This document shows positions 20,786 through 59,894 of a stretch of DNA of 64,000 nucleotides, one piece after another (position 1 is the stretch's first letter; each line of letters begins with the position of its first letter). A model generated the notes under the pieces. The model saw only the letters and a program-made list of their open reading frames with translations, searched no databases and was not told the origin of the DNA. This stretch comes from Escherichia coli. Its GTDB lineage: Bacteria; Pseudomonadota; Gammaproteobacteria; Enterobacterales; Enterobacteriaceae. The position numbers were made by a program, and so were the translations under genes. The stretch lies in the NCBI RefSeq assembly GCF_011045215.1, contig NZ_CP049201.1. One strand, written 5' to 3'.

Positions 20786-21413
20786 AGAAATTGCCCGGGA
20801 TATGCTGGAGTCCGTAAATATTAATGGGGATGGGTTTCTGGGGGCCGTCGGGAAGGGGCTCATATCTTTGCCAGTCAGTCTCGGTTATATGGGATATGAT
20901 TTTACAGATACCGGGCATAGGCGGGAAAACCAGAATGACAAATTCAGAATGGCCAGACTGGTAGAAAAAGGCATTTTCAGCCGTGATATTATTGGGAAAA
21001 TTATCAGTATTTGTCTTGAAGACTTTGTATCCCGGATCAATATGGAAAAAATAGGCTCCATTGTGAAGAACGTTTCAGGAGATCTGGCAGGTAGAATGGC
21101 ATTTGCTGAATTGACCGGGGTTAAACTGGGAGAGGCTCTGGTATCCAGAGGGCTGGCTGCTTTTTTTGCAGGGAGTTTTGCCGGGTTGTTATTATCTGTT
21201 GGCGCAGAGACATCGCGTGCGATTTACACATCCCGTTTTCTGAAAGACAGAAATCCGGTGTTGCATGATAAGCTGAAAGCTCAGGGGGATTTGGATCTTT
21301 TGTACTTCCTTGTTGAAGATATTGTGCGCCCGTTTGAACGAGCCTGTATTGTCGCAGACCGAAATTCGGCTGAGTTTGACCGGATATGCGAATATTTTTT
21401 CGGTGGTTTATGA
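20774..21413 (+). CDS. Hypothetical protein with a Gly/Ala-rich hydrophobic segment (putative membrane-active effector)
   Basis: 213 aa from MDSAKEIARD; segment GLAAFFAGSFAGLLLSVGAET; located between clpV and vgrG; function not recognised. Confidence 0.45.
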
Positions 21414-21637
21414 AGATAAAAAGAACATTACTTATAATGCTTTCCCGATTTATCCGTGGCGCAGGTATGGGGTTAGGTGCGTCGGGTATTGTATTTACAG
21501 TCTGGTTCTTTTTTCTCTCATCTTCTGAATTTAAATATCTGTGGGGAGGGCTCTCTGTTGCGTTATTTTTTGTCGGTTATCTGATGTATCGATTTGCATA
21601 TGCATATATTTACGATGAATGGGATGATTATCAGTAA
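21410..21637 (+). CDS. Small two-TM membrane protein (putative cognate immunity)
   Basis: 75 aa, ATG overlaps the upstream stop (ATGA); two hydrophobic helices GMGLGASGIVFTVWFFFL and LSVALFFVGYLMY. Confidence 0.4.
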   Translation: MKIKRTLLIMLSRFIRGAGMGLGASGIVFTVWFFFLSSSEFKYLWGGLSVALFFVGYLMYRFAYAYIYDEWDDYQ

Positions 21638-21715
21638 TTCTCTCTGAAAATAAAGCTTAACGGTCATCATTATATAATTGCAGTTCAATACCGGTACAGA
21701 CATGGAGTTAACAAT

Positions 21716-38508: not shown

Positions 38509-39752
38509 ATGGCAGGAAGAAAAAAAGATGATAATGCAGCGGGATTTGTTCTGATTTTAGTTTGCGTTATTCTCTGGGGGATTTATGTGGCGGTCAGGGC
38601 GCTGATAAATCTTAATGAGCGCTTTATTGATGCAGTATCGAATCCGGCAGGTATTATTGGTTTGTTTTTGGGTTTGCTTACTGTATTTGCAATTTTACTT
38701 CGTTTTTTTATTTACCGGAGACTCAGAAAGAAAACAGCAGCCTTTGAGCAGGCCGTTTCAGAGCTGGTTCAGAGAGAACGGGGTTTTAATGAAACTGTCA
38801 ATGCCGCGATAGCCCGGGGAATACGACAGGAAAAGGAGCAACTAGCCAGACGTCGTGAGGATTTCATACCGCCAGACAGAAGGCCAGCCGTGCAATGCAA
38901 CGGATTGTTGATTCCGCTTGGAAATTTAAGGCGAAGACTCTGCTGGCTGGTGTAACGATTAATAACTGGCAAAGCAAATATGACCAGCTTCGTAAGGAAA
39001 GAGAGGCTTACGCTGCTGTCAGTGAGAAAATTGCCTTTCTTAACCTGGAAGATAATTCTGACTGGGAGAGTGTCAGGCAACAGTTTCTGGACAAAGTGGC
39101 GTTGCTGGAAAAAGCGCAGGAAGAAAAGGAATATCAGGCAGAGCTTAAGCGTCAGATGCGTGAAGAAAAAGAGCGTCAGGATGAACTTGACCGGCGCCAG
39201 CGGGAAGCGGAAGAGGAAGAGCGGCGTCTTGCCGAGCAGCAGAAACTGATTGAAGAGGCGCTGCGTGCCGCAGAAGGGGCTCACAGGGAGGAGCTGGAGA
39301 AACAACGCCTGGCGCTGGAACAGAAAATTCAGGAAGCGCATGCGCAGTACGAACGTGCTAAATCCATGGCTCAGCTTACGAAACAGGGGCATGTTTATAT
39401 CATTTCGAATATTGGTTCGTTTGGTGAGGATGTCTTTAAAATTGGCATGACCCGACGGCTGGAACCCATGGACAGGGTCAAAGAGTTAAGTGGTGCTTCT
39501 GTTCCGTTTGATTTTGATGTTCACGCCATGATTTCCTGTGATGATGCGCCTGCGCTGGAAAAAACACTTCATGACAGTCTGGAAAAATACCGCATTAACA
39601 GGATTAACCTGCGTAAAGAATTTTTCCGCGTGAAGCTTGAGAAAATCATTAATGAAGTGGAGCGTCACCACGGGCAGGTGGAATATGTGGCTGACCCGGC
39701 GGCGCTGCAGTACCTGCAGAGTCTGGAGTGCGCGGAAAATGAAGCTGCCTGA
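38509..39752 (+). pseudogene. Membrane-anchored coiled-coil protein with C-terminal T5orf172/GIY-YIG-like domain (DUF4041-type), frameshifted as given
   Basis: ORF 38509..38955 (two TM helices then helical region) and ORF 38895..39752 (coiled coil then GHVYIISNIGSFGEDVFKIGMTRRLEPMDRVKEL...FDFDVHAMI) are adjacent, overlap, and lie in different frames; both frames read as natural protein up to the 38860..38900 interval. Confidence 0.6.
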
Positions 39753-39944: not shown

Positions 39945-41732
<1,788 letters not shown>

Positions 41733-42157: not shown

Positions 42158-43522
42158 ATGACTTCTGAAGTGAAACTGAAAACCGGTGGTGACCCCCGGT
42201 CATTACCGGATTATACTGCCCTACGTGATGAAATCAGCAAACTGACCCACCCGGCACGCCCGGATGTGGACTGGCGTTATGTGGAAACACTCTGCCTGCG
42301 TCTGTATGAACACAATGGCGTGGAATTACAGACGGCATCCTGGTACACCATCGCCCGGATGCATACAGCAGGGTTAAGTGGCCTGAATGAAGGGCTGGCT
42401 CTGATTGTGGCGCTGACCCGGCATCACTGGTCAGTGATGTGGCCGCTGAATACCCACGCCCGGCTGGAAATTATTACCGGTCTGTTCAACCGTCTGCAAA
42501 AAACGCTCCGGGCCATGCCACCGGATAACCGTGACAACCTGCCTCAGCTGTATCAGACCGAAACATTCCTGAAGGTACTGAGTGACATATTTATCCGACA
42601 TGAGCTGAAGCAAAACAGCCGGCTGGTGTTACTGGAAAACATGGTGAAGGGATATATCATTCGTCTGGAGAATCAGCCTTTACAGGGGGATGATTCGTCC
42701 CCGGTAACGCTTCCTGCTCAGGCACTCCGGTCTGATGCACCGGATGTGCAGGAACATCAGACCCTGCCGCACTCCCGTCTGGTGTATATTGTTTCTGAAA
42801 CAAAAGCAGAACCCTCCCCCTCCCTTCAAAAGTCTTCACCCACGTTTCTGAAACCGTTTGTGGCTGGTGTCTGTGCGGCATTGCTGGCTGTCAGCATGGC
42901 CATTCCGGGATGGCAGTTTCTGACACAGCCATCACCGGCGGAGCAGCAACTCAGGGCGCTGCTGACCCCCCCACCGGATGTGCTTTCAGCAGACCAGATG
43001 ACACAGCTCAGCAGAATACCCTCACTGTTAAATCATGTGTCAGAGTGGATACCCCTTTCCGGTCAGCAGATAACGCGACTGACAGAACTACCGCCGGCAT
43101 ACAACCTGCAACGCAGTGCGCAGCTGCTGCAGCAACTGATGGTGCTTTTTCCCGATAATCCCCGTGTCCAGGAAATGGTGGATAACTGGCAGAAGAGTGT
43201 AATGAGCCGTGCGCTCCCGGAAGAGGCGATGACGGGCTGGAACGAAGGTATGACCCGCTTACAGCAGCTGGCTGAGCGCCTGAACCGTCTGGATGAACAG
43301 CGGGGAAAATACATAACGGTCAGTGAACTGAAAACGGAGGTGTTTGGCATCATGCAGGCTTTTAACCGGCATATCCCGGCAGAAGAGCAGTTACGTCGCT
43401 ATGGCGAAGCCCGCAACCAGAATGGCAGTGAACAGCAGCAAAAACAGGCTGAAATGGCGCTGAATCAGTTGATTAACCGTTATCAGATGGAACACACAGG
43501 CAATCAGGAGGGGCAGCCATAA
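42158..43522 (+). CDS. ImpA_N-domain protein (TssA-related, TagA/VasL-like) with internal TM helix
   Basis: 454 aa; N-terminal GGDPRSLPDYTALRDEISKL...PDVDWRYVETLCLRLYEHNGVELQTASWYTIARMHTAGLSGLNEGL matches the ImpA-related N-terminal domain; hydrophobic segment FVAGVCAALLAVSMAIPGW mid-protein. Confidence 0.65.
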   Translation: MTSEVKLKTGGDPRSLPDYTALRDEISKLTHPARPDVDWRYVETLCLRLYEHNGVELQTASWYTIARMHTAGLSGLNEGLALIVALTRHHWSVMWPLNTHARLEIITGLFNRLQKTLRAMPPDNRDNLPQLYQTETFLKVLSDIFIRHELKQNSRLVLLENMVKGYIIRLENQPLQGDDSSPVTLPAQALRSDAPDVQEHQTLPHSRLVYIVSETKAEPSPSLQKSSPTFLKPFVAGVCAALLAVSMAIPGWQFLTQPSPAEQQLRALLTPPPDVLSADQMTQLSRIPSLLNHVSEWIPLSGQQITRLTELPPAYNLQRSAQLLQQLMVLFPDNPRVQEMVDNWQKSVMSRALPEEAMTGWNEGMTRLQQLAERLNRLDEQRGKYITVSELKTEVFGIMQAFNRHIPAEEQLRRYGEARNQNGSEQQQKQAEMALNQLINRYQMEHTGNQEGQP

Positions 43523-43846
43523 TGGCTGATTAGATAGGGTAATGTAAAATAATGCAACAATAACGTTTACACAATAAGGTGTAAGCTGAAATTAACTCGT
43601 TCGTGGAATAACCTAATGAGTAAGGTTCTGCTACTTTGAGTTGGATAAGTTATATAGAACAGCAGTCCTGATAGTCAGAAAGAGTTTTTTCTGGGGTGTA
43701 TTTTTATAGGGTGTTAATCTGGTATTTAATTAAAAGACGGAGTTATTTATACTGACATATCAAATAAATAATTTTTAACGACTTTTCTATTTGGCTGATT
43801 GTTTTGCGTTCTTTTTATAAGGTGTTTTATTTTTAAAGGTTTTTTG

Positions 43847-45662
43847 ATGAGATTACATAGTCTTAAAATAAAAGGATTTAAACGTATCCAAACTGCAAGA
43901 GATAATATTTGGTGATACCACGTTTCTCATTGGTGCTAATAATGCCGGTAAAAGTTCTGTTCTGAAGGCCGTTGAATGGCTGCTTTCAGATAAAAAGAAG
44001 ATGGATATTGACTTTTTTTATTGTGAATCTGATGAATCACGTGAAAATAAAATAGCAACTGAGTCAATTGTACTCGAGGCTGAATTCAGAAATGTACCGG
44101 AAGAGGCATTGCAATGGAGAGGTTTTAGGGGGAGGATATTTGAATATAATGCTGGAAATAGTGGGGAAACGGGAAAGTCTCTGATTTACAGGAAAACATA
44201 TGAACCGGGGAATGATGTTGTTATTGAATTGAAATCTTTTTCAAGAAAATTGAATACACGATTTGAAACCGCAGTCAGAGCATCTGACTTGGTAGAAGCT
44301 GGTGCTGATGCCGAAATCATCACTGAGTATTTTCCAGATCAAGCTAAAAGATTTAATGCAGCTGACAAAGAAAAATTAAAACTCATTGATGAATTATGGG
44401 ATATTTCTGATGATGAAGAAGTTTGGGATAAAAACCCGGGGGGAATTGCAGGTGTTGTGTTATCCCGATTACCTGCTTTTCTATTAATACCAGCAGAATC
44501 AGCTTCTCATGAAATTGACACAAAAGCGGGAGCTTTGCAGAAAACGCTGAATGAACTATTCAAAGATGTTCGTGGCAATTCAGAAAATTATAGAAAGGCC
44601 CAGGAGTCTCTGAATGCGCTTGCGAAGGAATTAGATCCTGCAGATGAAACGTCAGAATTTGGTGTGATGATGGGAGAACTTAACAGTGTATTAAGCGGAG
44701 TTTTTCCAGAGTCAAAGATATATGCTACGGCTGATTTATCTGATCCTGATAATGTTCTCCTACCTTCATTTTCGGTTGAAATGTCGAGTAACATTAAAAC
44801 ATGTGTATCGAATCAAGGAACCGGAATGATTCGAGCAGCTGTATTTGGATTGTTGAGATTTCGGCAGCAATGGCTGAGAAAAAAAGGTAAGGATGATGCT
44901 GCTACCAGAAGTCTTATTATTGGATTTGAAGAACCAGAAATTTATTTACACCCTAGTGCAGCAAACCAGATGAGAGATTTGATTTATGAATTATCAGATG
45001 GACAGTCACAAATAATAGCGACAACACATTCACCTTATTTGATTGATTTGTCGAGAAAACCCCGACAGGTACTTAACCGATTCCATTATGATAATTCACA
45101 TACGACAGTCTACCCGCTCTCAGTGACAGAGAAATTTCTGGCCTTGCAGGATAATGATAAAGATCAGATAAAAATGCTGATTAAGCTGGATGATCATGTA
45201 TCAAGGATCTTTTTTACCCGAAAAGTTGTTGTTGTCGAGGGAGATACAGAGGAAGTCATTATCAAAGAAGCTATCCGCAGAATGCCAAAAGCAATGCGAA
45301 ATAAGTTGCTTGCATCAACAGAGCTGGTTAAAGCACGTGGCAAGGCTGCGATTATCGGCCTGGTGAAGTATCTTAGCGCGCTGGATGTTGATTTTTTTGT
45401 TATCCATGATCGTGATGGCGGAACTCCCGGTGCGGAGATCTTTAATGCGCCGATTGCTGCTGCTGTTGGGGATGCCAGCAAAGTTATCATGCTGGAAGAG
45501 TGTATTGAGGATCTGCTGGGGTACCCAGCTCCAAGTGGTGAAAAACCGTTTAAGGCGTATCAGGAAGCACAGCGCTGGGGAGATAACTGGAATGACGTGC
45601 CTGAACCATTAAGGAGAATACTGACTAGAGCTTTTTCCCCATTTATCGATTTGGCTGAATGA
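43847..45662 (+). pseudogene. OLD-family ATP-dependent endonuclease (ABC-type ATPase plus Toprim), N-terminal frameshift as given
   Basis: ATG at 43847 encodes MRLHSLKIKGFKRIQTARDNI then TGA at 43913; shifting frame at 43908..43913 gives FGDTTFLIGANNAGKSSVLKAVEWLL (Walker A) continuous with the 44001..45662 ORF; downstream TTHSPYLIDLS and Toprim-like VVVVEGDTEE...FFVIHDRDGG. Confidence 0.75.
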
Positions 45663-46077
45663 GCAAAAGGGAAAAACTCTGATAAGTAGAGAGTTGAAGA
45701 TGAGCGCTTGGTGCATTGCCAGCACTCTTTTGATTGAAGATCTTTATTTCAGTGAAAGTGGTGCCTGGTTTGCCTTGCCTAAACGTATCATAAAGTCGGC
45801 ACACCATACCTGATGCTGCTATGCGATGTTCCTGCTGGATGTGATGTCGGAAAGAAAGGCGGAATATTACTGCAATAAGGTAGCAGTCCATATCAGACGC
45901 GGGCCTTTCATGATGAACAGGAGAATAACTTGAGTTGCCGGGAATTGCCGCGGCCATACGACATAATCGGGCCAGAGGAAAACACCAGATGGCCTCAATA
46001 TCTGACATTGTCAGAGACCTTTCGCGGCTCGGCTGGACGGATGAACGCATTGGCACTGAGCGGGGCAAGTGCTAAGG

Positions 46078-48555: not shown

Positions 48556-48816
48556 AATTTCCGCTGGTATAACAAACAGGGTTATGGATATTCTCGTTTA
48601 TGTGGAACATTCAGTTTGTATCGGAACTGGTAAGAACCTGACAGTTACATTCCCAATGTTTTATGGGGCTTCGGGGATATATATAATAGTTTATTGATAC
48701 ATGTTCTGTAGTTATACTGCGTATTCCGCTCTATTCGATCACGGATTTGCATCGAAGTCCGATCAGCGATTCGCATACTTTCGATCAACCGGGAACTTAA
48801 CTTTTTCTACCGCTTT

Positions 48817-49572
48817 TTAACTCGTTTTTTCGATGCTTTCCACTACCGGGGGGTTTTTCCTCAGGGACTCTCCCTGAAGGACCAGTCTGTGTGAGTTATG
48901 TACCAGTCTGTCCAGGATGGCATCTGCTGTTGTTGGGTTCTCCATCAGACCATGCCATTTATCTACCGGGAACTGGCTTACCACTATCGTGCTGCTTTGA
49001 CCGTAACGATCTTCTATGAGCTCCAGAAGGTCATTACACTGGGCGTTACTTAACTGTTCCAGCCCCAGATCGTCCAGGATTAGAACCTGTATTTTTTGCA
49101 ACTGTTTCAGATATTTCAGCCAGCTGCCATCAACACGTCCCTGAGCCAGTTGTTCCAGTAATCGCCCGGTTCTACAGTACCGGACGCTGTGTTTCTGTCG
49201 ACATGCCTGTTCGCCCAGCGCATTGGCTATCCAGCTCTTGCCACATCCTGTCGGACCGGTTATCAGCAGGTTTTTCCTGTGGGTTATGTAGTGGCCGTTC
49301 AGCAGTTCCCTCATCTGTTCAGCCCGCAGACCTCTTGAGGCCGGATAGCGCAGCCCTTCCGGTGTTGCCTGATATTTCAGGCCGGCATTTTTTCTCAACC
49401 GTGCCACACGGCTGTTTTCCCTGCTCAGAAGCTCGTCATCAACCAGCAGCGTCAGCCTTTCCTCGAACGACAGTTCGTCGTAGGTCTGAGGCGTTTCCCG
49501 CTGCCGTATCAGGCTCCCGGCCATCGCCGGGAGTTTCAGTTGGGTCAGTTTGTTTAACAGATTATCACTCAT
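48817..49572 (-). CDS. istB: IS21 helper ATPase IstB
   Basis: Start at ATG giving MSDNLLNKLTQ; Walker A GPTGCGKS and Walker B VLILDDLG; the ORF-track N-terminal extension is judged spurious. Confidence 0.85.
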   Translation of the reverse strand: MSDNLLNKLTQLKLPAMAGSLIRQRETPQTYDELSFEERLTLLVDDELLSRENSRVARLRKNAGLKYQATPEGLRYPASRGLRAEQMRELLNGHYITHRKNLLITGPTGCGKSWIANALGEQACRQKHSVRYCRTGRLLEQLAQGRVDGSWLKYLKQLQKIQVLILDDLGLEQLSNAQCNDLLELIEDRYGQSSTIVVSQFPVDKWHGLMENPTTADAILDRLVHNSHRLVLQGESLRKNPPVVESIEKTS

Positions 49573-49588
49573 TCGGTTGTTCCTTCTG

Positions 49589-51235
49589 TCAGTGGTAGTA
49601 GCCAGGACCACGCAGGTTTTCATGCTCTGAAGCATATGCCGGATGTTGTTCGCCCTGGCGGGATAACGGAAGCTCAACGTTATCCCGATGATGACGCAGC
49701 AGATTGTCGATAAAGCGTCTGTCCGGGGCGTTATAGTGCAGGGCAACGTAACAGGCCTTTTCCAGCCGTTCCGGGCCGTATTTTTTCTGAAGTGCCAGCA
49801 GACCCAGGACTGCACGGTAAGCCAGCTCCGGATGGGGTTTGGCTTTCAGCATGGATTCAACCACCCGGCCTGTGGACGGACCTGTACGGTTTCCCTGCTC
49901 GATAAGGCGTTCCGGTGTCCATGTCCCATGCCGCCGGTGGCGTTCTGGCATGTGAAGCGGATTGGTTGTGTGTTTATATTCATGTGTGCTGCGCGGATGT
50001 TGCGCCACACACTGCCCCTTGTGCCAGAGTTGTACCACCGACTGCCCCGCCTTCAGTGACAGACGCTGACCGACCAGTTCGTGTGGAACGGAGTACCAGT
50101 GACGGGCATATTCAACGTGATAGTCAGGGCCAACCTTCACGGCTTTGTATTCCGTGTATTCATAAGGTGCCAGAGGCAGCGGAGAGAGTGCTGGCGCATC
50201 CAGTATGCGGAAGCGTTCTGCACGGGTTTGATTGCCGTACCCCTTCATTGGCCGGTTATTCATGTCTGTCAGTAACTCCCGAAGGCGCGCATTCAGCGCC
50301 CTGAGCGTGTGGAAGGTTTCATTACGGATGCGGGCAAGAAGCCATCGTTCGACGATGAGGACGCCGTTTTCTGCTTTTGGTTTATCTTTAGGTTTGCGTG
50401 GTCGGGCCGGGATAATAACCGTGCCATAGTGCTCAGCCAGCGCCTGATAACTGTCGTTGATGACAGGCTCATAGCGATCGGCTTTTTTCACTGCGCTTCT
50501 GAGGTTATCGGGGATGAGCAGCTTCGGTACGCCGCCCAGGAAGGTCAGGCAACGGCTGTGGGCATTTAACCATGACATCATGTCCTGACCTTCGCACGCT
50601 TCAACATAGGTATAGTTGGACGCCCCCATTACAGCCACGAAGATTGCCACGCGGCGTATCTCTCCGGTGTCCGGATTAATAACAGGGACCGTAGGACCAC
50701 AGAAGTCGATAAAGAGCTTTTCGCCAGCACGATGCTCCTGTCGCATGGAGAGGCGTCGCGTTTTTTTCCACTTCCGGTAGCAACGGCAGAAGTGTGAGTA
50801 TCCCATCGCTTTGTCACCCGCCTGTGCCTTGTATTCCATCCACAACAGTTGGCGCGTCACGCCAGGTTTTCTCATTTCCGTATCGAAGTACAGCATGTCA
50901 GGCATAACAAGCTCCGACGCAGAGGTGTCTTTGGGCGGGTAAATGAGTTTCTCCAGCGTGTCATGGGATATATCAGCAGGTAATGGCCATGACAGAGAAG
51001 AGGCTTTGAAGCGTGCAAGAACCTCAAAAACGGTTGAGGCGCTGATGTGTAATGTCAGCCCGATACAACGGTTAGTCAGCTTCTGGTCGAACTTGAGCTG
51101 AAGGATCTTAAAACAGGTTTCCATAGTGCTCCTGGATTTTCTCTTTCTGGACATTGCCGTCTCCATTGGTTTAAACACGGCAATGAAGACTGTGGCGAAA
51201 AGAGTTAATTCCCGGAGTGACTGGCAGGATGCCAA
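49589..51235 (-). CDS. istA: IS21 transposase IstA
   Basis: 548-aa ORF upstream of and adjacent to istB; start codon uncertain within the first 40 codons. Confidence 0.85.
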   Translation of the reverse strand: MASCQSLRELTLFATVFIAVFKPMETAMSRKRKSRSTMETCFKILQLKFDQKLTNRCIGLTLHISASTVFEVLARFKASSLSWPLPADISHDTLEKLIYPPKDTSASELVMPDMLYFDTEMRKPGVTRQLLWMEYKAQAGDKAMGYSHFCRCYRKWKKTRRLSMRQEHRAGEKLFIDFCGPTVPVINPDTGEIRRVAIFVAVMGASNYTYVEACEGQDMMSWLNAHSRCLTFLGGVPKLLIPDNLRSAVKKADRYEPVINDSYQALAEHYGTVIIPARPRKPKDKPKAENGVLIVERWLLARIRNETFHTLRALNARLRELLTDMNNRPMKGYGNQTRAERFRILDAPALSPLPLAPYEYTEYKAVKVGPDYHVEYARHWYSVPHELVGQRLSLKAGQSVVQLWHKGQCVAQHPRSTHEYKHTTNPLHMPERHRRHGTWTPERLIEQGNRTGPSTGRVVESMLKAKPHPELAYRAVLGLLALQKKYGPERLEKACYVALHYNAPDRRFIDNLLRHHRDNVELPLSRQGEQHPAYASEHENLRGPGYYH

Positions 51236-51327
51236 TCAATGATCGGAAGCGTGCCAAATCGTGATCGATTGTGATGCCAAACTGTGATCGGAGATGGATG
51301 CCAAATCATGATCGATTCGAATGCCAA

Positions 51328-52817
51328 CATACCCTTACCCACAAGTTTTCTGGGCTATTTCTATGGCATTAATTGACAGCATTAATTGTGTTAATCCTGA
51401 CCATATAGTCTTAGGGCCTGGAGGCGAATCATTTTTTCTTGCCAGATATCCTCCTAATCTTGCAAGCATTAAAACCGCCGTTCTTATATTCGGTATGTTT
51501 TCAGGTGGAGGCGTATTCTCTACCAATATCCAGAGATACTCATATTCTTTCTTTTCGAAAATTAAATCACAGGGTTCCTCCGGAACCATTTTATACAATG
51601 AGCTAAGATAAAGTATTCTCCATGAGATTATAAGGTATAAGGCCAGACAGTTCCTTGTGCGTTCAAATGTCTCAAGTTGTAATTTCTCAACCTGACATCC
51701 GCTTTTTAATACCTTAAAGAAAACTTCAATCTGCCAGCGTAATAAATACCATTGAATAAGCTGTGCGGGTTCCGTCAGCTTTTCTGGAGGTACACTACTC
51801 ATTAGCCACCATACTAATGGCTGGACACTTTCTGGAGCATTTATTTCCTTTGCAAGTAATACAGTTACCGTTACCGGAGAACAACGTAACTTTCCTCTTC
51901 GACCGGTGGGTGGATGTAGCGTCAACCTTGCTAAGCGTAGCTCCTGCTGGACTTTGCGGGAAGGTTGTCCTCGTCCTTCCGGAAGGGTAAACTCAATTAT
52001 CTGCTGTGGCAAAATCTGCATCATTTTTTCATTCAGGAGTAATGAGTCTCTTTTTCCTGATGAATTCAGTATAGCCCGGTTAATGCTCTTCATTCTTACG
52101 AGCCAGTCAGCCTTTATCCCACTTTCATTTTCTGCACTCTCAAAGAGGTCGTAAATATCACCTTCACGGTCTGAAACAGAAATTATCTGGGTATCAGGAC
52201 AGGACCTAGCCAGTTCTGTTGCTTTTTTATATCCTTCTATCCACCGTCCTGTTTCTTTCTCACTGATATGTTTCCTGTGAAGTGAATCATTAGTTATTTC
52301 TTTACGACTTTGTTTCTGAGTTTTGAGTTCTTTTCTGAACCATTGATAATCATCATAAACCCCTAAGCAAATACCTGAATCACTTATAACCAATTGAGGG
52401 TGAATAAACAAATCTCGCTCATTTTCATGTCGTCTGGGACCGACGCCCTGTTTCTTTTTTTGACCAGAATAATTTAGTTCAGTCGTATCCTGTAAAACCA
52501 GAGCCCGTTTAAACTGTTTAGTCCTTTCGATGATATTTTTCTTATGGGGAGCCATGATTTTATCGGCTGAAATTTTATCACTGGAAAAGCAACGATAAGC
52601 AGCTTTTGTCTCACTCCAGGTACGGCAGGATACGGGAATACTTTCCTTTGGTGAACGGCTAAGCACACTGAGAACGTGCTTTATTCGCTTTTCGAGCCTG
52701 ATATCACCAACATTCAGAGATTCCAGCTCCTTAATAACCCAGTTTTCCATAGTTCCTCTAAATTATGGTTAATTTATCAACAGAATAACATCACTCGGAT
52801 TTATGGGTAAGGATATG
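51328..52817 (-). mobile_element. IS4-family (IS50-like) insertion sequence, copy B
   Basis: Inverted duplicate of 440..1929 with the same 14-bp terminal repeats and the same 9-bp flanking repeat (GAATGCCAA on this strand at 51319..51327 and 52818..52826). Confidence 0.75.
51335..52750 (-). CDS. IS4-family transposase (identical to 507..1922)
   Basis: Identical 471-aa translation to the copy at 507..1922. Confidence 0.85.
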   Translation of the reverse strand: MENWVIKELESLNVGDIRLEKRIKHVLSVLSRSPKESIPVSCRTWSETKAAYRCFSSDKISADKIMAPHKKNIIERTKQFKRALVLQDTTELNYSGQKKKQGVGPRRHENERDLFIHPQLVISDSGICLGVYDDYQWFRKELKTQKQSRKEITNDSLHRKHISEKETGRWIEGYKKATELARSCPDTQIISVSDREGDIYDLFESAENESGIKADWLVRMKSINRAILNSSGKRDSLLLNEKMMQILPQQIIEFTLPEGRGQPSRKVQQELRLARLTLHPPTGRRGKLRCSPVTVTVLLAKEINAPESVQPLVWWLMSSVPPEKLTEPAQLIQWYLLRWQIEVFFKVLKSGCQVEKLQLETFERTRNCLALYLIISWRILYLSSLYKMVPEEPCDLIFEKKEYEYLWILVENTPPPENIPNIRTAVLMLARLGGYLARKNDSPPGPKTIWSGLTQLMLSINAIEIAQKTCG

Positions 52818-53658
52818 GAATGCCAAACCGTGATCGATTCAGATGCCATTTTGCAGTTATACACTATTGAGTATTATATTGTTATGAAAATATCTGTACT
52901 TATGGAATATTTAATTCTGATGATGGGGCTCTGGTTTGTTGTATGGTTAATTACGGACTGGTTACCTCATATCTGACGGAAAGTGGTATCAGTGTGTATT
53001 CGCATTGACCGGACATCGACATATAACGAATTACGTTCCGGACAAAACTCTCCTGCAGGAAAGGGTAACATTGTATTTTAAACATATTATTCAACCAGTC
53101 ATAAGCATAAACCGACCGCCGTATGTAGCCATTAAGCCAGTATTGGTAACGAAGATACCCACCTTTTCAAAAAGGAAGTGGATAAAAGATAACGAAAATG
53201 CGAAGAGTTGATTAATACATTGAAACAAAATTCATTAATGATGAACTTGGAGAAAAGCTCCATCAAAATACGACACGACCTGTCGTAATTTGTGTTAGCC
53301 AGGAAAGAATATCTACTACTCACTAAAATGATTTAGTGCTGAAAATATTTACAAGCCAATAAATTGACTGGTATTACGGAGTAACGCCCAGGCTATGTTA
53401 ACGAACCCGCTGTTTTATTGGCTCAAAAAACATATCCCAGAGATGTTCAGCCATACCCTCGTTAGTGAGCAAGGTATCCCCTTAGTAGCCAGGGCTGAAG
53501 ATGCCCATTGATGGGCGAAAACCAAGGATCTGGCCGTTAGAACAGTTATGTCGTTAAACACATCACCACCATATGCCATCCGGTTCACTTCGTCGGCCAA
53601 ATTAGTGTGATATTCTTTCCAGAAATGCTGTTGTATCCACGACATAAGGCGATGATTG

Positions 53659-56600
53659 ATGGAGCAGTCTCTCAATTTTGAAATGTTGCGCAGCCAGTGG
53701 CCGGAACTGGCTGAACTCGCGTGTATGGCGGAACGCTATGTTCACTCCGATCCGGAAAGCTGTCTGGTCAAGCTGCGCAACTACACCGAATTGATGGTGC
53801 GCTGGTTGTATCGTCAGGAGCGGTTGCCGGAAGGTATTAAGGCTAATCTTTACGATTTAATGAATGCTGATGTCTTTACCAGCATGATGCCGGAAGCCAT
53901 CATCATGAAAATGGATGCGCTGCGTATCCATGGCAACCGTGCCGCGCACGGCGGACATATCAAAGCTAAAGATACTTACTGGCTGCTCAAAGAAGCGTAT
54001 TTGTTGGGAATTTGGCTGTATGTTCGCTACGCCCACGGTAATGTTGATGACTGCCCCAAATTTACACTCCCTCCATTAACACAATCTTCAGGTCGTGCAG
54101 ATGAAAAACGTCTGGAAGATGCAATCAGGGCTCAGGATGAAAGCCGTGAGCGCGAACTGGCGCTGCAACGCGCACTACAGCAAGAACAGGAAAAGGCCGA
54201 ACACCTCACTCAACGCCTGAATGAAGCCAGAGCGCGTAACCAGCATGTTGCCGATATTCTCTCTATTGATGAAGCGGAAACCCGCCGTCGCCTGATTGAC
54301 TCTCGCCTGCTTGCTGCTGACTGGAATGTAGGCGAAGACCTTAAAAATACCGATCAGGTTACGCAGGAACATCCCGTTAAAGAACAACCTACCGCGACCG
54401 GAGACGGTTATGCGGACTATGTCTTGTGGGATGAGGCACACAAACCGCTGGCGGTGGTGGAAGCAAAAAAAACCAGCGTCAATGCCGAGCAAGGACGAAT
54501 TCAGGCCCGGCTGTATGCAGACTGGCTGGAAAAAGAATACGGCCAGCGTCCGATCATCTTCTACACCAACGGCTATGATATCTGGCTGTGGGATGACCAT
54601 AAAACTCATGGTTATCCCCCGCGTCGGGTGTTTGGCTTCTACAGCAAGGAAAGCCTGCAATATCTTATTCAACAGCGTGAAACCCGTCTGCCGCTGAACA
54701 ATGTGCTGCACGTAAAGGATAACGAAGGTAAGGCCGTTGCCGGACGTTTGTACCAGCTTGAAACCATTGCTCGTGTCAGCGAACGGTTTACCAATAAATA
54801 TCGTCAGTCATTAATCGTTCAGGCCACCGGCACCGGTAAAACCCGTGTAGCGATTACACTGAGCAAACTGATGATAGATGCCCGCTGGGTAAAACGCGTC
54901 CTGTTTCTTTGTGACCGCAAGGAATTACGTAAACAGGCGGCGAATGCCTTTAATCAATTCACCAATGAGCCGCTGTATGTAGTTGGAAAATCGAAAAAAG
55001 CAGACAGGCAGAACGCCAGGATCTACATCGCCACCTATCCAGGCATGATGAAAATCATGGACCATTTCGATGTCGGTTATTTCGATTTGATCATCGCCGA
55101 TGAATCCCACCGCTCTATCTACAACGTCTACGGCGATCTGTTTAAGTATTTTGATGCCCTCCAGATTGGCCTGACGGCCACGCCGATTGACATGGTAAGT
55201 AAAACCACTTTCGGCCTGTTTGGTTGTGAAGGACGTATTCCTACCGCCAACTACAGCCTGGAAGATGCCATCGCCGATAACAATCTGGTTCCCTATGAGG
55301 TTGTCACGCACACCACAGAATTCCTGCGGGAAGGCATCAAACGGGAGAAATTAAGCGACGCACAAATCCGCGAGCTGGAAGAACAAGGCATAGATCCCAA
55401 TACGCTGGAGTTTGATGGCAAGGTGCTGGATGAGGCGATCTACAACAAAGACACCAACCGCTATATCCTGCGTAACCTGATGGAAAATGGCCTGAAAGAT
55501 CGGGACGGCCAGTTGCCAGGTAAAACCATCATTTTCGCCCGTAACCACAAACACGCGCTGCTGTTGAATGAATTGTTCGACGATATGTACCCACAGTTTG
55601 CCGGGCGCTTCTGCTAGGTCATCGACAATTACGATCCCCGTGCCGAGCAACTGATTGATGATTTTAAAGGGCTGGATGAAAGCACCAACAAAGAGCTGAC
55701 CATCGCTATCTCCGTTGACATGCTCGATACCGGTATTGATGTCCCGGAAATTGTGAATCTGGTCTTTGCCAAACCGGTCAAATCAAAAGTGAAGTTCTGG
55801 CAGATGATTGGCCGTGGTACGCGCCTCTGTCCGGGGTTGTACGGTTACGACGATAACGGCAAGCCGCTGGATAAACAGAAATTCCGCATTTTCGATCACT
55901 GGGGCAATTTTGAGTATCACGAACTGCATACCGAAGAGGCCGAAGTCACAGCGACAAAATCGCTTGCACAAAAACGCTTCGAAGCGTGGGTTATGCTGGG
56001 GGCCGCTGCGCAACGTAAATTCGACAAACAGGCGGTGGATTTAGTTGCTCACCAGCTTCGCGAGCAAATCAACGCACTGGATGAAAAGTCGATTGCCGTA
56101 CAGGAAAAGTGGCAGCAAAAAGCGCAGTACAGTGATGCAAAGGTGCTGCGCCAGCTTTCTCCGAAAACACAGCAGGATCTGCTATCTGTTCTGGCCCCGC
56201 TGATGCAGTGGCTGGACGTACGCGGGCAAAGCGATGCCATACGCTTTGATATGGATATTCTGGCGGCGCAAACTGCCCGTTATACCAACCCGGAAGAGCT
56301 GGATGTGCTCTGGCCGGTCATCGTCGAAAAAGTGGAGCGCCTGCCGTCGCATTTGGCGCAGGTGCAACAGCAGGGACAGCGAATCAATCAGCTTCGTGAT
56401 TTGGGCTGGTGGAAGCAAGCCAGTCTGGAAGAGCTGGAGGATATCCGCATTCATTTGCGCGGTATCATGCACCTGATGGAAAAAGACGCGACGCCGAAAT
56501 TTGGTTCTATACAGGTGGATATTACCGAAGATGCGAACCTGATCCAGACGGAAACCCGCAAAACCAACATTCGCTCGATTGATTTCAAACTCTATCGCCA

Positions 56601-57072
56601 GCAGGTTCAGGGGGCACTGGAGCCGCTGTTCCAGCAAAATCCGGTGCTGAAGAAAATCCGCAACGGCGAGCCAGTCACGCAAAACGAGCTGGATGAACTG
56701 GCGAAGCTGGTGCTGATCCAGAACCCCAACGTTGATATCCGGGCACTGAAAGAGTTCTATCCGCAGGCAACCGCCAGCCTGGATAAACTTTTGCGTACCA
56801 TCATCGGGATGGACAGCGACGCGGTGGAAGTGCGCTTTGCTCAGTTCGCCGCTGATAACAGTCTGACCAGCCAACAACTGCGCTTCCTGTCATTGCTGAA
56901 AAACCACATTCGCGATTACGGCACCATTGAAATGCGGCAGCTCTTTGAACAGCCTTTTACGCATATCCACAACGAAGGCGTTACCGGTGTGTTCCCTGAT
57001 ATAGAGCAGATCGCCCGCCTGCAAAAGATAGTCGAAGAGCTGGGTGTTGTGACCGACGTAGCGACGGTATAA
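53659..57072 (+). pseudogene. hsdR: Type I restriction enzyme R subunit HsdR, interrupted by an in-frame TAG at 55615..55617
   Basis: ORFs 53656..55617 and 55720..57072 are in the same frame and the codons between them read on as HsdR (VIDNYDPRAEQLIDDFKGLDE...); helicase motifs QATGTGKT (Walker A), DESH, FWQMIGRGTRL present; likely a CAG to TAG change. Confidence 0.8.
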
Positions 57073-57135: not shown

Positions 57136-58770
57136 ATGATCACTGGTGACTTAAAAAGTAAAATCAACGGCCTGTGGGAAGATTTCTGGGTGGGTGGTAT
57201 CACCAACCCGCTGACCGTAATCGAACAGATCACCTATCTGATGTATTCCCGGATGCTGGATACCCAGGAACAACGCGACGAGAAGCGTAAACAAATCGCG
57301 GGAATTGATTTTAAACCGCGTTTTGCGCCAGAACAGCAGGAGTTCCGTTTCAGTCACTATAGCAATCTTGGCTCGGATGAGATGATGGAAGTGGTGCGCG
57401 ATGGCGTATTCCAGCATTTTCGTCAGCTCGGCCAGGCCGATGCGTCGAAGGTGACGCTGCTGGGCAACTTTATGAAAGATGCTCGTCTGGAGATTGTTAA
57501 GCCGTCATTACTGACCAAAGCGGTTGAGGTGATCAAAAACCTGCCGCTGGATCGTGGCGACACCAAAGGCGACCTTTACGAATACCTGTTAAGCAAGCTG
57601 ACCACTGCCGGAATCAACGGTCAGTTCCGCACGCCGCGCCACATTATCCGCACGATGGTTGAAATGATGGAGCCGAACCCGGCCCGCGGCGAGACGATTT
57701 GTGATCCCGCCTGTGGCACCGGTGGTTTTCTGGCAACCAGCTATGAATATCTTCTGGAGAAGTACAGCTCGCTGGAATCCATCCATACTGAGATTGGCAC
57801 CAACGAACGTGGCGAGCTGGAAGAGCAAAAAATCTTTACCGGCGATCTGCTGACACCGTGGCGTAACCATGTAGATAACAATATGTTCCACGGTTACGAT
57901 TTTGATACCACCATGCTGCGTATCGCCGCCATGAACCTGATTATGCACGGTGTGGAAGCGCCGGATATTCACTATCAGGACACCATGAGCCAGAGCTTCA
58001 GCACTAACTTCCCTCAGGCCAGTAAAAACGCTTTCAATCTGATTCTGGCGAACCCGCCTTTTACCGGTTCACTGGACGAGGAAGATATCGACTCCACGCT
58101 GTCGGCAATGGTGAAAACCAAAAAAACCGAACTGCTGTTCCTGGCGCGTATTCTGCAAATGCTGAAAGTGGGCGGGCGCAGTGCCACTATCGTGCCGCAG
58201 GGCGTGCTGTTTGGCTCCAGCAAGGCGCACCAGTTACTTCGCAAAACGCTGGTGGAAGATAACCAACTGGAAGCGGTGATCAATCTGCCTTCTGGTGTAT
58301 TTAAACCTTACGCTGGCGTGGCGACGGCGATCCTGATCTTTACCAAAGGCGGTCAAACGGATGAGGTCTGGTTCTACGATCTACAAAATGACGGCTACAG
58401 CCTGGATGATAAGCGCAACCCGATAAAAGACAACGATCTGCCGCATCTGCTGGCAAGCTGGAAGCATTACCGTACTTTACGCGGGCTACCGGTTGATAAC
58501 TTTATGGGTGAGAAGTTAGCCTCGTTGCTTAAACAGCAGTACCCGGAAGGGATTGATGCTGGCGTTGATTTTAAAGATCGCACGCAGGCGGCGTTTGTTG
58601 TACCGAAAGCGGATATTGCTGCGCAGAAATACGATCTCTCTATCAATCGTTATAAAGAGGTGGTGTATCAGGCGGAGGAATATGAAGATCCGAAGGTGAT
58701 ACTAAAGCGCTTAAAAGATTTGGAAAAAGAAATTCTGGCGGATCTGGATGAGCTGGAGGGGATGCTGTGA
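57136..58770 (+). CDS. hsdM: Type I R-M N6-adenine DNA methyltransferase HsdM
   Basis: 544 aa; catalytic NPPF motif ([11 protein letters not shown]), AdoMet-binding region [11 protein letters not shown]. Confidence 0.9.
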
Positions 58771-59894
58771 GTTCGGCGATGGTGAAGTTAGGGGATGTTA
58801 TTAATGTTCACTACGGAAAAGCATTAAAAGCTGATCAGCGAGTATCGAATGGAAGTGTCCATGTTTTTGGTAGTTCAGGAATTGTCGGCAACCACGATAA
58901 AACGCTTTGCAGCTATCCCACGATAATTATTGGCCGCAAAGGCAGCGTTGGTGCTATTACCTGGGCTCCTGACGGAGGTTGGATCATTGATACTGCTTAT
59001 TACGTTGAGATCAAAGATAATAATAAGTTAGATCTCCGATACTTGTTTTATATTCTGAGCGGAATTGATCTCACTAAGAAAACGATTACCACAAGTATTC
59101 CTGGATTAAATAGAGACGATCTCTATGATACATTTATTAAATTACCACCTTTTGAAGAGCAGAAACGAATTGTGGATCTTCTCGATAAAGCTGAGGGTAT
59201 ACGCCAAAAACGTGAGCAATCCATCAAACTGGCTGATGATTTTTTGCGTGCTACGTTTTTAGAGATGTTTGGTGACCCTGTTGAAAATCCCAAAAAATTA
59301 AAAAAATCCCCCATTACTGAATTGGCAGATGTCATTACAGGTTTTGCATTCAAAAGTAATGAGTACATTAATGATTCGTCTGAAGCGGTACGGCTTTGCA
59401 GAGGGGCAAATACGCTTACGGGATATTTAGATTGGGCTGATACAAAATTCTGGACAAAAAACAAACTGGAAAAACTAGATAATTATTTAATTAAGGCAGG
59501 TGATATTATCCTCGCTATGGACCGTCCGTGGATATCAAGCGGGTTAAAAGTATGCATATTCCCTGAAAATCAGCGAGAAACGTACTTAGTTCAGCGAGTA
59601 GCTAGGTTACGACCTCGTTGCGAATCTTACACAAACTATATTTACAGTTGTATTAAATCGCCAGCTTTCGAAAAGCATTGCTGCCCAACAGAAACAACGG
59701 TGCCACATATATCTCCTGTTGAACTTAAAAATTTTGAAGTTCTAATTCCGCCCGACGAACTTATGGTTAATTTTCATTCGATTGTATCAATAATCAACAA
59801 TAGCTTAAATAAAATGGCATCAGGCGATATTGATAGCGACGCCCTCTTCTCTAAGTTAAGTCAGCAGGCTTTTTCAGGACATCTTAAGAGGTAA
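58767..59894 (+). CDS. hsdS: Type I R-M specificity subunit HsdS
   Basis: 375 aa, GTG start overlapping the hsdM stop; two target-recognition halves separated by conserved central helix (LPPFEEQKRIVDLLDKA) and C-terminal conserved LSQQAFSGHL; AT-rich. Confidence 0.85.
   Translation: MSSAMVKLGDVINVHYGKALKADQRVSNGSVHVFGSSGIVGNHDKTLCSYPTIIIGRKGSVGAITWAPDGGWIIDTAYYVEIKDNNKLDLRYLFYILSGIDLTKKTITTSIPGLNRDDLYDTFIKLPPFEEQKRIVDLLDKAEGIRQKREQSIKLADDFLRATFLEMFGDPVENPKKLKKSPITELADVITGFAFKSNEYINDSSEAVRLCRGANTLTGYLDWADTKFWTKNKLEKLDNYLIKAGDIILAMDRPWISSGLKVCIFPENQRETYLVQRVARLRPRCESYTNYIYSCIKSPAFEKHCCPTETTVPHISPVELKNFEVLIPPDELMVNFHSIVSIINNSLNKMASGDIDSDALFSKLSQQAFSGHLKR

Follow-up and report, generated by a model that had tools for sequence, protein, structure and literature searches.

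Within the 64,000-nt stretch of Escherichia coli chromosome analysed here (the window), an OLD-family ATPase-Toprim gene carries one additional A shortly after its start codon. We consider it very likely that this AT-rich gene was acquired horizontally and encodes a lone class 1 OLD anti-phage nuclease, in a variable defense slot at the end of a T6SS cluster, and that the present allele has recently lost its function through the insertion of this A. It would represent ordinary decay of a defense gene, of a known kind. The features of the locus are given in Table 1.

Table 1. Features of the OLD gene and its surroundings (window coordinates; residues numbered on the repaired protein)
Feature	Position	Strand	Details
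NERD and UvrD-like helicase gene	39945..41732	+	2.1 kb upstream of OLD, two genes between; neighbor, not partner
ImpA_N/VasL (TssA/TagA-like) T6SS accessory gene	42158..43522	+	Open ORF, 454 aa; immediately upstream of OLD, at the edge of the T6SS cluster
Whole OLD-family gene	43847..45662	+	1816 nt, one base more than the intact 1815-nt, 604-aa alleles
Remnant leader ORF	43847..43915	+	22 codons, MRLHSLKIKGFKRIQTARDNIW; TGA stop at 43913-43915; frame reading
CDS annotation of the identical allele (GCA_036881245.1, RefSeq)	43893..45662	+	CTG start, Walker A frame; WP_334285390.1, 589 aa
Lesion	43897..43898	+	AA for the single A of intact alleles (CTGCAG to CTGCAAG), codon 17/18, +1 frameshift; alignment with four E. 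coli alleles
Walker A / P-loop, G29-ANNAGK35-S36	43932..43955	+	Invariant alignment columns; now out of the ATG frame
Longest canonical-start ORF	44001..45662	+	ATG, 553 aa; starts at residue 52 of the intact protein, without the Walker A P-loop
Walker B, E361-E362 in FEEPE	44928..44933	+	Aligns with Ts OLD E276 and P2 Old D299 (PMC7049728)
OLD-like Toprim core, residues 455-523	45210..45416	+	PF20469 match (8.9e-12); alignments to 6p74 and P2 Old
Metal-A ligand E464	45237-45239	+	Residue role from PMC7049728
Metal-A ligand D521	45408-45410	+	Residue role from PMC7049728
Metal-A ligand D523	45414-45416	+	Residue role from PMC7049728
E554	45507..45509	+	Aligned with Ts OLD E480 (second metal-B ligand); nearly invariant in the family
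Terminator-like hairpin with trailing T-run	45710..45726	+	48 nt 3' of the stop codon; consensus match only

An earlier note, made from the sequence alone, had assigned the gene to the OLD family, and this identity was supported by PADLOC, Pfam, PDB sequence matches and Foldseek. With the reading frame repaired, the protein matched the Pfam families AAA_15 (1.4e-40) and OLD-like_TOPRIM, and the PADLOC Old model (1.8e-66, compared with 3e-32 for the top GajA model). The closest solved structure was the class 1 OLD of Thermus scotoductus (Ts OLD, 6p74), which came first both in the PDB sequence search (7e-19) and in a Foldseek search with the AlphaFold2 model (pLDDT 79.1, pTM 0.77; 4.3e-21), where 6p74, GajA and the retron-Eco8 OLD were the top matches (E-values 4e-21 to 1e-16). 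The repaired protein retains every catalytic residue, each with a counterpart among those tested in PMC7049728. These residues are invariant in a 53-sequence alignment of homologues, including the P-loop, both Walker B glutamates and the H-loop histidine (H394). In the Toprim part, E464, D521, D523, E468 (a predicted metal-B ligand by alignment) and E554 correspond in the alignment to E377, D431, D433, D381 and E480 of Ts OLD, and the position of Ts OLD S478 is taken by C552. The two proteins nevertheless differ: identity is 17% in the structural alignment, the deposited chain has 528 residues compared with 604 aa, and the domain orientation of the crystal differs from that of our model (rmsd 11 Å, TM about 0.5). 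From these matches and the model, the repaired protein is predicted to be an OLD-family ABC-ATPase with a Toprim nuclease.

The earlier note had also proposed a one-base frameshift near the start, located at the T-run at 43908-43913. Alignment to intact homologues, the check it had suggested, bore out the single-base indel but moved its site: the extra A lies at 43897/43898, 10-15 nt upstream of the T-run, and the alignment to E. coli alleles rules out a slip at the T-run itself. The site is not in a homopolymer run (CTGC[A]AGAG). Indel lists against the alleles of strains C5, SC418 and APEC20/16 contained a single gap over the entire length of the gene, so that a second, compensating indel is ruled out; with all ATPase and Toprim motifs present, the gene body is otherwise intact, as had been stated. 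Also as stated, the start codon and the Walker A segment are in different frames: the frame from ATG 43847 stops at codon 23, and the segment GDTTFLIGANNAGKSS is read in the +1 frame relative to this ATG. The residues RDNI(W), which had been taken for the natural N-terminus, are an out-of-frame read-through downstream of the lesion, given where the indel maps; in the repaired frame the true N-terminus reads MRLHSLKIKGFKRIQTA-EIIFGDTTFLIG.... The remainder of the ORF is clean, with dN/dS values of 0.03-0.2 against relatives, and given this clean ORF the frameshift is probably a recent event.

A frameshift of this kind could be an error of sequencing or assembly, in which case the strain would truly have CTGCAG and an intact 604-aa gene. 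Such an error would also leave the rest of the gene flawless, as it is, and a CTGCAG (PstI-type) motif lies right at the lesion in the intact allele; methylated motifs can cause systematic errors in long reads, and one at methylated CTGCAG is conceivable if both genomes that carry the allele share a long-read pipeline. However, the second of these genomes, the draft assembly GCA_036881245.1, contains the identical OLD allele, extra A included, and differs from the window elsewhere (99.8% identity over 17.7 kb, with 29 substitutions and one 6-bp indel). Its 44-kb contig ends in an IS, as in short-read assemblies. A one-off sequencing error is therefore very unlikely, and the same applies to the homopolymer error that the earlier note had offered as an alternative. 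The product of the frameshift allele is represented by two GenBank protein accessions and one RefSeq accession, with separate accessions for the product of GCA_036881245.1; direct independent support for the extra A thus consists of this assembly and the protein accessions, one of which could be the window's own genome. Against an error linked to the motif stand 42 other CTGCAG sites, all intact. A generally error-rich assembly is ruled out: three single-base coding indels relative to close relatives occur in about 35 kb, and the T6SS core genes have none (zero indels in about 18.5 kb aligned). In addition, the Logan assembly of run SRR11014969, made independently from raw reads, recovered two neighboring lesions at 100% identity, the PD-Lambda-1 frameshift and the hsdR amber codon, the latter a substitution. 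An error therefore appears highly improbable, and the extra A is, as judged from these comparisons, a real and inherited mutation.

The GTDB representative genomes held no match to either OLD allele. A scan of JGI metagenomes returned two contigs, none of them with the extra A (0/2): in one the allele is intact; in the other, the G-run at codons 197-199 has lost 1 nt, as it has in ETEC strains. Exact look-ups found the 581-aa helicase, the 285-aa PD-Lambda-1 fragment and the 450-aa hsdR fragment, and gave no match for the 553-aa ORF, the repaired 604-aa protein, the 454-aa TagA-like protein and the 595-aa helicase.

Inactivation by a 1-nt indel, the other reading in the earlier note, is the one we retain, loss of function being deduced from the stop at codon 23. 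The leader ATG is preceded at 7 nt by a Shine-Dalgarno-like AAAGG motif, and with the A inserted at codon 17/18, ribosomes starting at this only good start terminate after 22 codons. The Walker A frame is free of stops from 43872 to the terminal stop at 45660-45662, and reading it upstream of 44001 revealed neither ATG nor GTG nor TTG; before that point a usable ribosome-binding site is also missing. Given early termination and the lack of a usable start in this frame, we infer that the allele yields no protein with a competent ATPase; the extra A very probably knocked the gene out. The consequence of losing ATP binding is not the same for all OLD proteins. K-to-A mutants of Walker A abolished killing by P2 OLD (PMC7049728) and defense by the Vibrio cholerae protein Vc OLD (PMC12392090), whereas a Walker A mutant of E. 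coli YbjD retained its anti-phage phenotypes (PMC13261556), so this loss is not universally inactivating.

The allele could instead be leaky, with a low level of near-full-length OLD arising by initiation or termination-reinitiation at CTG 43893, or by +1 slippage at GCA-AGA-G with the rare arginine codon AGA in the A site; we regard this as improbable. The CTG lies in the Walker A frame 20 nt upstream of the leader stop codon, the leader has a good ATG with its Shine-Dalgarno-like motif, and PGAP/RefSeq calls the 589-aa CDS from this very codon; for slippage, AGA is a rare and slow codon in E. coli. On the other hand, CTG is a very poor start codon in E. coli, and no Shine-Dalgarno motif is suitably spaced from this one: the closest such motif is about 17 nt upstream, which makes a translation start there doubtful. 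The 589-aa CDS in RefSeq is probably an annotation workaround. A product begun at the CTG would also lack residues 1-16 and with them, according to the AlphaFold2 model, strand beta-1 of the ATPase core. Slippage, for its part, would have no slippery codon for re-pairing of the P-site tRNA and no upstream stimulator as in prfB; reading of 43872-43915 revealed neither a CUU-UGA-type site nor a Shine-Dalgarno-like stimulator. Since all other alleles are simply in frame, which is the ancestral state, nothing points to a conserved recoding signal, and a programmed ribosomal frameshift is ruled out by the same alleles together with more than 50 in-frame homologues. It is more doubtful still that the extra A serves as an attenuator of expression, limiting a nuclease that may be toxic to its own cell to a tolerable level in this lineage by re-initiation at CTG 43893 or slippage at GCA-AGA-G.

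Turning to the class of the system, the genomic environment of the OLD gene fits class 1, as had been proposed from the lack of a helicase partner. There is no helicase immediately downstream and no retron; ibrA/ibrB remnants and PerC follow the gene instead. Homologues elsewhere stand alone: those in Klebsiella, Pseudomonas and Enterobacter (65-69% identity) and one in a Vibrio inovirus (48%) have neither a helicase nor a reverse-transcriptase neighbor. The Klebsiella homologue occupies the terminal position of a P4-like satellite, and the Pseudomonas and Enterobacter homologues are found among housekeeping genes. The putative terminator 3' of the gene is consistent with a single-gene unit. 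A promoter scan around the gene gave no more sites than shuffled sequence, and the window contains no tRNA that could mark an integration site.

The statement that no helicase is adjacent holds for the immediate downstream position, but it had overlooked the NERD-UvrD helicase gene upstream. This raises the alternative of a multi-gene, Gabija-like or class 2-like system made of OLD, the upstream GIY-YIG gene (PD-Lambda-1) and the helicase. The block tssE - DUF1283 - GIY-YIG - NERD/UvrD - ImpA_N/VasL - OLD is kept in E. coli and Serratia marcescens, and the helicase has a weak match to GajB models (5e-21). However, the helicase is 5' of OLD and two genes away rather than immediately 3', and PADLOC matches it best to a candidate family of its own, NERD+UvrD (2.5e-141). 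Of 5426 E. coli genomes, 1047 carry the helicase and 14 carry OLD, which shows the two to be unlinked; the helicase is also found with Zorya in place of OLD. Together with the lone homologues and a PADLOC Old score far above the GajA models, these observations make a multi-gene system extremely unlikely.

The other OLD classes were excluded on similar grounds. Gabija GajA (class 2) shares the two-domain fold (Foldseek 2e-18) and matches the repaired protein with HMMs up to 3e-32, but the Old model outscores the GajA models by far, and no GajB-type helicase directly follows the gene. Class 2 proteins have a helical insert in Toprim and a helical domain at the C-terminus; at the level of overall fold, TM-scores of class 2 structures against the AlphaFold2 model (0.44-0.52) are similar to those of class 1, the best sequence and fold matches being class 1. 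A retron effector (class 3) is ruled out by the absence of any Rfam family, retron RNA included, at gathering score anywhere in the window and of a reverse-transcriptase ORF nearby; the NCBIfam retron Eco8 effector model gave 56.7 bits, below its cut-off of 250. Class 4 (PARIS, AriA and AriB) is ruled out as well: intact alleles encode one 604-aa protein, and the AriA model covers the ATPase part only.

Within class 1, we compared the gene with known members. Like P2 Old, the archetype, it is a single cargo gene carried by a mobile element, and the Walker A lysine, the Walker B acidic residue, the H-loop histidine and the Toprim E/DxD residues all align. Unlike P2 Old, with which it shares about 24% identity over residues 189-523 only, it is chromosomal, sits beside a T6SS cluster rather than in a P2 prophage, and is frameshifted here. 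YbjD/OldB, the core-genome class 1 OLD of E. coli (PMC13261556), is also a lone gene, and the repaired protein has a weak match to its Pfam family (DUF2813, 2e-06); in contrast to ybjD, the window gene is accessory and AT-rich, with the restricted distribution given above, and is not an orthologue. Vc OLD, a bacterial lone class 1 OLD, is a DNA nickase whose defense activity requires the Walker A, Walker B and Toprim acidic residues (PMC12392090), and is the likeliest functional model for the intact allele, by analogy.

By extension from the P2, Thermus and Vibrio proteins, the intact 604-aa protein would dimerize via its ABC-ATPase head. Binding and hydrolysis of ATP (K35, E361/E362 and H394) would license the two-metal Toprim nuclease (E464, D521, D523, E468 and E554), and upon a phage cue this nuclease would cleave nucleic acid and bring replication of the phage to a halt. 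Candidate targets are DNA, which is nicked by Vc OLD, or tRNA anticodon stems, the target of P2 OLD, which senses inhibition of RecBCD and cleaves tRNA-Thr (PMC12445682).

The gene belongs to a defense-rich islet with PD-Lambda-1, the NERD-UvrD helicase and a type I restriction-modification system, in which two further nuclease genes are broken, that of PD-Lambda-1 through a 1-nt deletion and hsdR through the amber codon. The slot at the end of the T6SS cluster holds OLD in some E. coli and a type II Zorya system in STEC strains. Intact OLD alleles are found in strains C5 (WP_073521218.1), APEC20/16, SC418 and E70, and ETEC strains have the same gene broken at the G-run; the gene has thus been broken at least twice independently. 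The frameshifted allele leaves the current understanding of OLD systems unchanged, and adds one more case of rapid turnover in this slot. It also calls for caution with annotations: WP_334285390.1 is listed as an intact 589-aa "AAA family ATPase" translated from the CTG and is almost certainly the product of a frameshifted pseudogene, so that finders of defense systems would score such a strain as an OLD carrier. The intact alleles of C5, APEC20/16, SC418 and E70 point to a clade of putative class 1 OLD nucleases of bacteria, a group described in the literature as under-explored, and judging by its homologues this clade is also carried by P4-like satellites and a Vibrio inovirus.

At 43847-45662 the window carries an accessory class 1 OLD gene that has very probably lost its function in this lineage; it is located in a fast-turning defence slot. 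Direct reading showed AAAGG 7 nt upstream of ATG 43847; the frame opened by this codon encodes MRLHSLKIKGFKRIQTARDNIW and ends at a TGA stop at 43913-43915. The Walker A frame (...EIIFGDTTFLIGANNAGKSS... onward) runs uninterrupted between 43872 and its stop codon at 45660-45662, and its earliest ATG, GTG or TTG, at 44001, gives an ORF of 553 aa that lacks the P-loop. Start codon and Walker A are thus in separate frames, as the earlier note had observed. Alignment to intact homologues, a check proposed in that note, was done with four E. coli alleles and revealed a single extra A at 43897/43898 (CTGCAAG in the window vs CTGCAG in the four alleles). From 43899 onward, T-run included, the five sequences do not differ. 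The frameshift therefore exists, but the earlier note was mistaken about its position and nature, having placed the junction at the T-run 43908..43913. Its interpretation as a single-base disruption of a class 1 OLD-family gene is supported by family models, this alignment and the genomic context. The gene is 1816 nt long, vs 1815 nt (604 aa) for intact alleles; deleting one A yields a 604-aa protein (hereafter the repaired protein) that differs from intact alleles at only 3-6 residues. Alignment with these alleles identifies the true N-terminus as MRLHSLKIKGFKRIQTAEIIFGDTTF....

The repaired protein fits OLD-family models at every level. The Pfam matches were AAA_15 (residues 1-399, 1.4e-40) and OLD-like_TOPRIM (residues 455-523, 8.9e-12). 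The top PADLOC model was Old (1.8e-66), well above both AriA, which matches just the ATPase portion, and every GajA model (best 3e-32). None of the NCBIfam models reached its cut-off for this protein (retron Eco8 effector, 56.7 bits vs 250). A sequence search of solved structures ranked 6p74, the class 1 OLD of Thermus scotoductus, first (7e-19), and a fold search with an AlphaFold2 model (53 homologues as input, pLDDT 79, pTM 0.77) returned 6p74 followed by Gabija GajA and retron-Eco8 OLD. P2 Old shares ~24% identity over residues 189-523. The catalytic residues are all encoded in the window's downstream frame: K35, E362, H394, E464, E468, D521 and D523 are invariant, and E554 nearly so, in alignments of 9 and 53 sequences. 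Mutation has shown that their equivalents are needed in Ts OLD and P2 OLD (PMC7049728) and in Vibrio cholerae (Vc) OLD (PMC12392090). The intact protein would be an ATP-licensed two-metal Toprim nuclease. P2 OLD severs tRNA anticodon stems (PMC12445682) and Vc OLD nicks phage DNA (PMC12392090); the intact protein may act in either way. The gene is of a known kind.

The one good start codon gives a peptide of just 22 residues, and the P-loop frame contains no canonical start ahead of residue 52; the frameshift allele would thus be expected to make no ATPase-competent protein. Walker A lysine mutants abolish killing by P2 OLD (PMC7049728) and defence by Vc OLD (PMC12392090), and the frameshift allele is therefore predicted to be non-functional. 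As a caveat to this null reading, E. coli YbjD kept its anti-phage phenotypes when mutated in Walker A (PMC13261556). Leaky expression is conceivable but very improbable, whether ribosomes were to start at CTG 43893, reinitiate once the leader ORF has been read or slip +1 at GCA-AGA-G: no Shine-Dalgarno motif is suitably spaced from the CTG, a slippery site is absent, a product from the CTG would be without strand beta-1 of the ATPase core in the AlphaFold2 model, and every other allele is plainly in frame.

The A insertion is very probably a real, inherited mutation rather than a sequencing error, and exact-protein look-ups provided the decisive evidence. The window's 581-aa helicase led to contig JBAJZH010000031.1 (44 kb, reported in 6 samples) of NCBI draft assembly GCA_036881245.1. 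Over 17.7 kb, 29 substitutions and one 6-bp indel separate this contig from the window, which makes the assembly that of another strain. The OLD genes of the two match at 100% identity, extra A included, and the deletion in PD-Lambda-1 is also common to both. The gene table of GCA_036881245.1 starts the OLD CDS at CTG 43893 (589 aa; 3001..4770 of the compared locus L033, corresponding to window 43893..45662), and the 589-aa product exactly matches WP_334285390.1, MEH0134440.1 and MEH0144832.1. RefSeq/GenBank call this product an intact "AAA family ATPase", with no frameshifted-pseudogene flag. Over 20 kb outside the OLD gene, a Logan assembly of run SRR11014969 matches the window at 100% identity, and it shows both the frameshift in PD-Lambda-1 and the amber codon of hsdR. 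The surrounding assembly looks clean: no indel was found vs the closest complete relatives in ~18.5 kb of aligned T6SS genes, and none of the T6SS core ORFs in the window is interrupted. No homopolymer is present at the lesion. CTGCAG occupies this position in the intact allele, and the other 42 CTGCAG sites of the window show no such change. The chief by-products of the analysis are the RefSeq mis-annotation and a list of intact alleles for testing bacterial class 1 OLDs.

Seven of the 14 OLD alleles from complete E. coli genomes were aligned with the intact SC418 allele as reference. Those of C5, APEC20/16 and E70 are intact, bringing the verified intact alleles to 4 of 14 with SC418 counted. 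The other four (ETEC 99-3165, L2_E1649, SCAID WND1-2022 and F5656C1) have lost one G from a run of six at codon 197 (G6 to G5); the SCAID allele has an IS1 insertion in addition, and that of F5656C1 is truncated by IS66. This run lies at codons 197-199 (window equivalent ~44432..44443), and the 1-nt deletion in it was seen in the compared loci L003, L024, L025 and L026 and in the metagenome locus L021. RefSeq gives the ETEC-lineage deletion alleles as two CDSs, and the remaining 6 of 14 show the same split annotation ("ATP-dependent nuclease" and "AAA family ATPase"). The ETEC-lineage deletion is independent of the window's A insertion. [quoted passage not shown] The frameshift is recent, because the window allele has accumulated no further damage.

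The gene (40% G+C, vs 48% for the window) lies after the E. coli T6SS cluster, in the order tssE, DUF1283/YdcA, GIY-YIG (PD-Lambda-1), NERD-UvrD helicase, 101-aa ORF, ImpA_N/VasL (TagA-like), OLD, ibrA/ibrB remnants and PerC. A terminator-like hairpin follows the OLD stop codon, and no Rfam family or tRNA was found within the window. A helicase immediately downstream is the defining feature of class 2 OLDs (Gabija; PMC7049728, PMC10568477), whereas the NERD-UvrD helicase here is upstream with two genes intervening. Of 5426 complete E. coli genomes, 1047 have this helicase and 14 have OLD. Serratia marcescens carries an OLD homologue (87% identity) in the same gene block. Homologues outside E. 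coli are mostly lone: those of Klebsiella (65-69% identity) lie at the end of P4-like satellites, those of Pseudomonas and Enterobacter (65-69%) among housekeeping genes, and a Vibrio inovirus carries a 48%-identical homologue as cargo. No conserved partner gene was found across the neighbourhoods compared (E. coli, Serratia, Klebsiella, Pseudomonas, Enterobacter and Vibrio inovirus). By the context definition, the window OLD is class 1.

The slot bounded by the TagA-like gene on one side and the ibrAB remnants on the other has variable defence content. OLD occupies it in this window as well as in 14 complete E. coli genomes; in several STEC strains type II Zorya (zorA2-zorB2-zorE) replaces OLD, with ibrAB intact (18108..22542 of the compared locus L027). 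The adjacent ImpA_N/VasL ORF is open in both the window and C5, and RefSeq nonetheless breaks it up in C5 into three partial pseudogene fragments. In Serratia, the corresponding gene encodes 407 aa and overlaps the end of the helicase gene.

The OLD region is a decaying island. Two nuclease genes besides OLD, PD-Lambda-1 and hsdR, are broken in the window. The PD-Lambda-1 deletion splits the gene into ORFs 38509..38955 and 38895..39752. The hsdR amber codon leaves ORFs 53656..55617 (653 aa, from an upstream TTG) and 55720..57072 (450 aa), the first part having 636 codons when counted from the start of the C5 gene at 53707. The intact-looking hsdM and hsdS beside a broken hsdR suggest an r-minus m-plus state. 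Relative to C5, the window also carries a 4.1-kb insertion made of IS21 and IS4-family elements.

Features of the OLD protein and of the surrounding window
Feature	Position	Strand	Remarks
Walker A	G29-x-NNAGK35S		repaired protein
Walker B	E361/E362		repaired protein
H-loop residue	H394		repaired protein
Second IS4 transposase ORF	507..1922	plus	family-model scores equal to 51335..52750 gene
PD-Lambda-1 / GIY-YIG (T5orf172)	38509-39752		1-nt deletion at 38862, GAGGA[g]TTTC, vs three E. coli references
ImpA_N/VasL (TssA/TagA-like) ORF	42158..43522		454 aa; 458 aa in C5
Variable defence slot	43523..45943
4.1-kb insertion	48717..52849		relative to strain C5
istB	48817..49815	minus	IS21 element
istA	49589..51235	minus	IS21 element
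IS4-family transposase gene	51335..52750	minus
hsdR, type I restriction subunit	53707-57072		CAG to TAG at 55615 (stop 55615..55617), codon 637
hsdM	57136..58770		looks intact
hsdS	58767..59894		looks intact
ResIII/DEAD helicase-like ORF	59901..63182		1093 aa, directly after hsdS

The helicase-like ORF that follows hsdS has weak family matches only (PADLOC PbeA, 1.7e-08, and NCBIfam RadD), and a 208-aa ORF with no family match comes after it. At window 8575, a 1-nt difference vs C5 (TGT[c]CCGG) lies ~15 nt from the 3' end of a ProQ/FinO-family gene.
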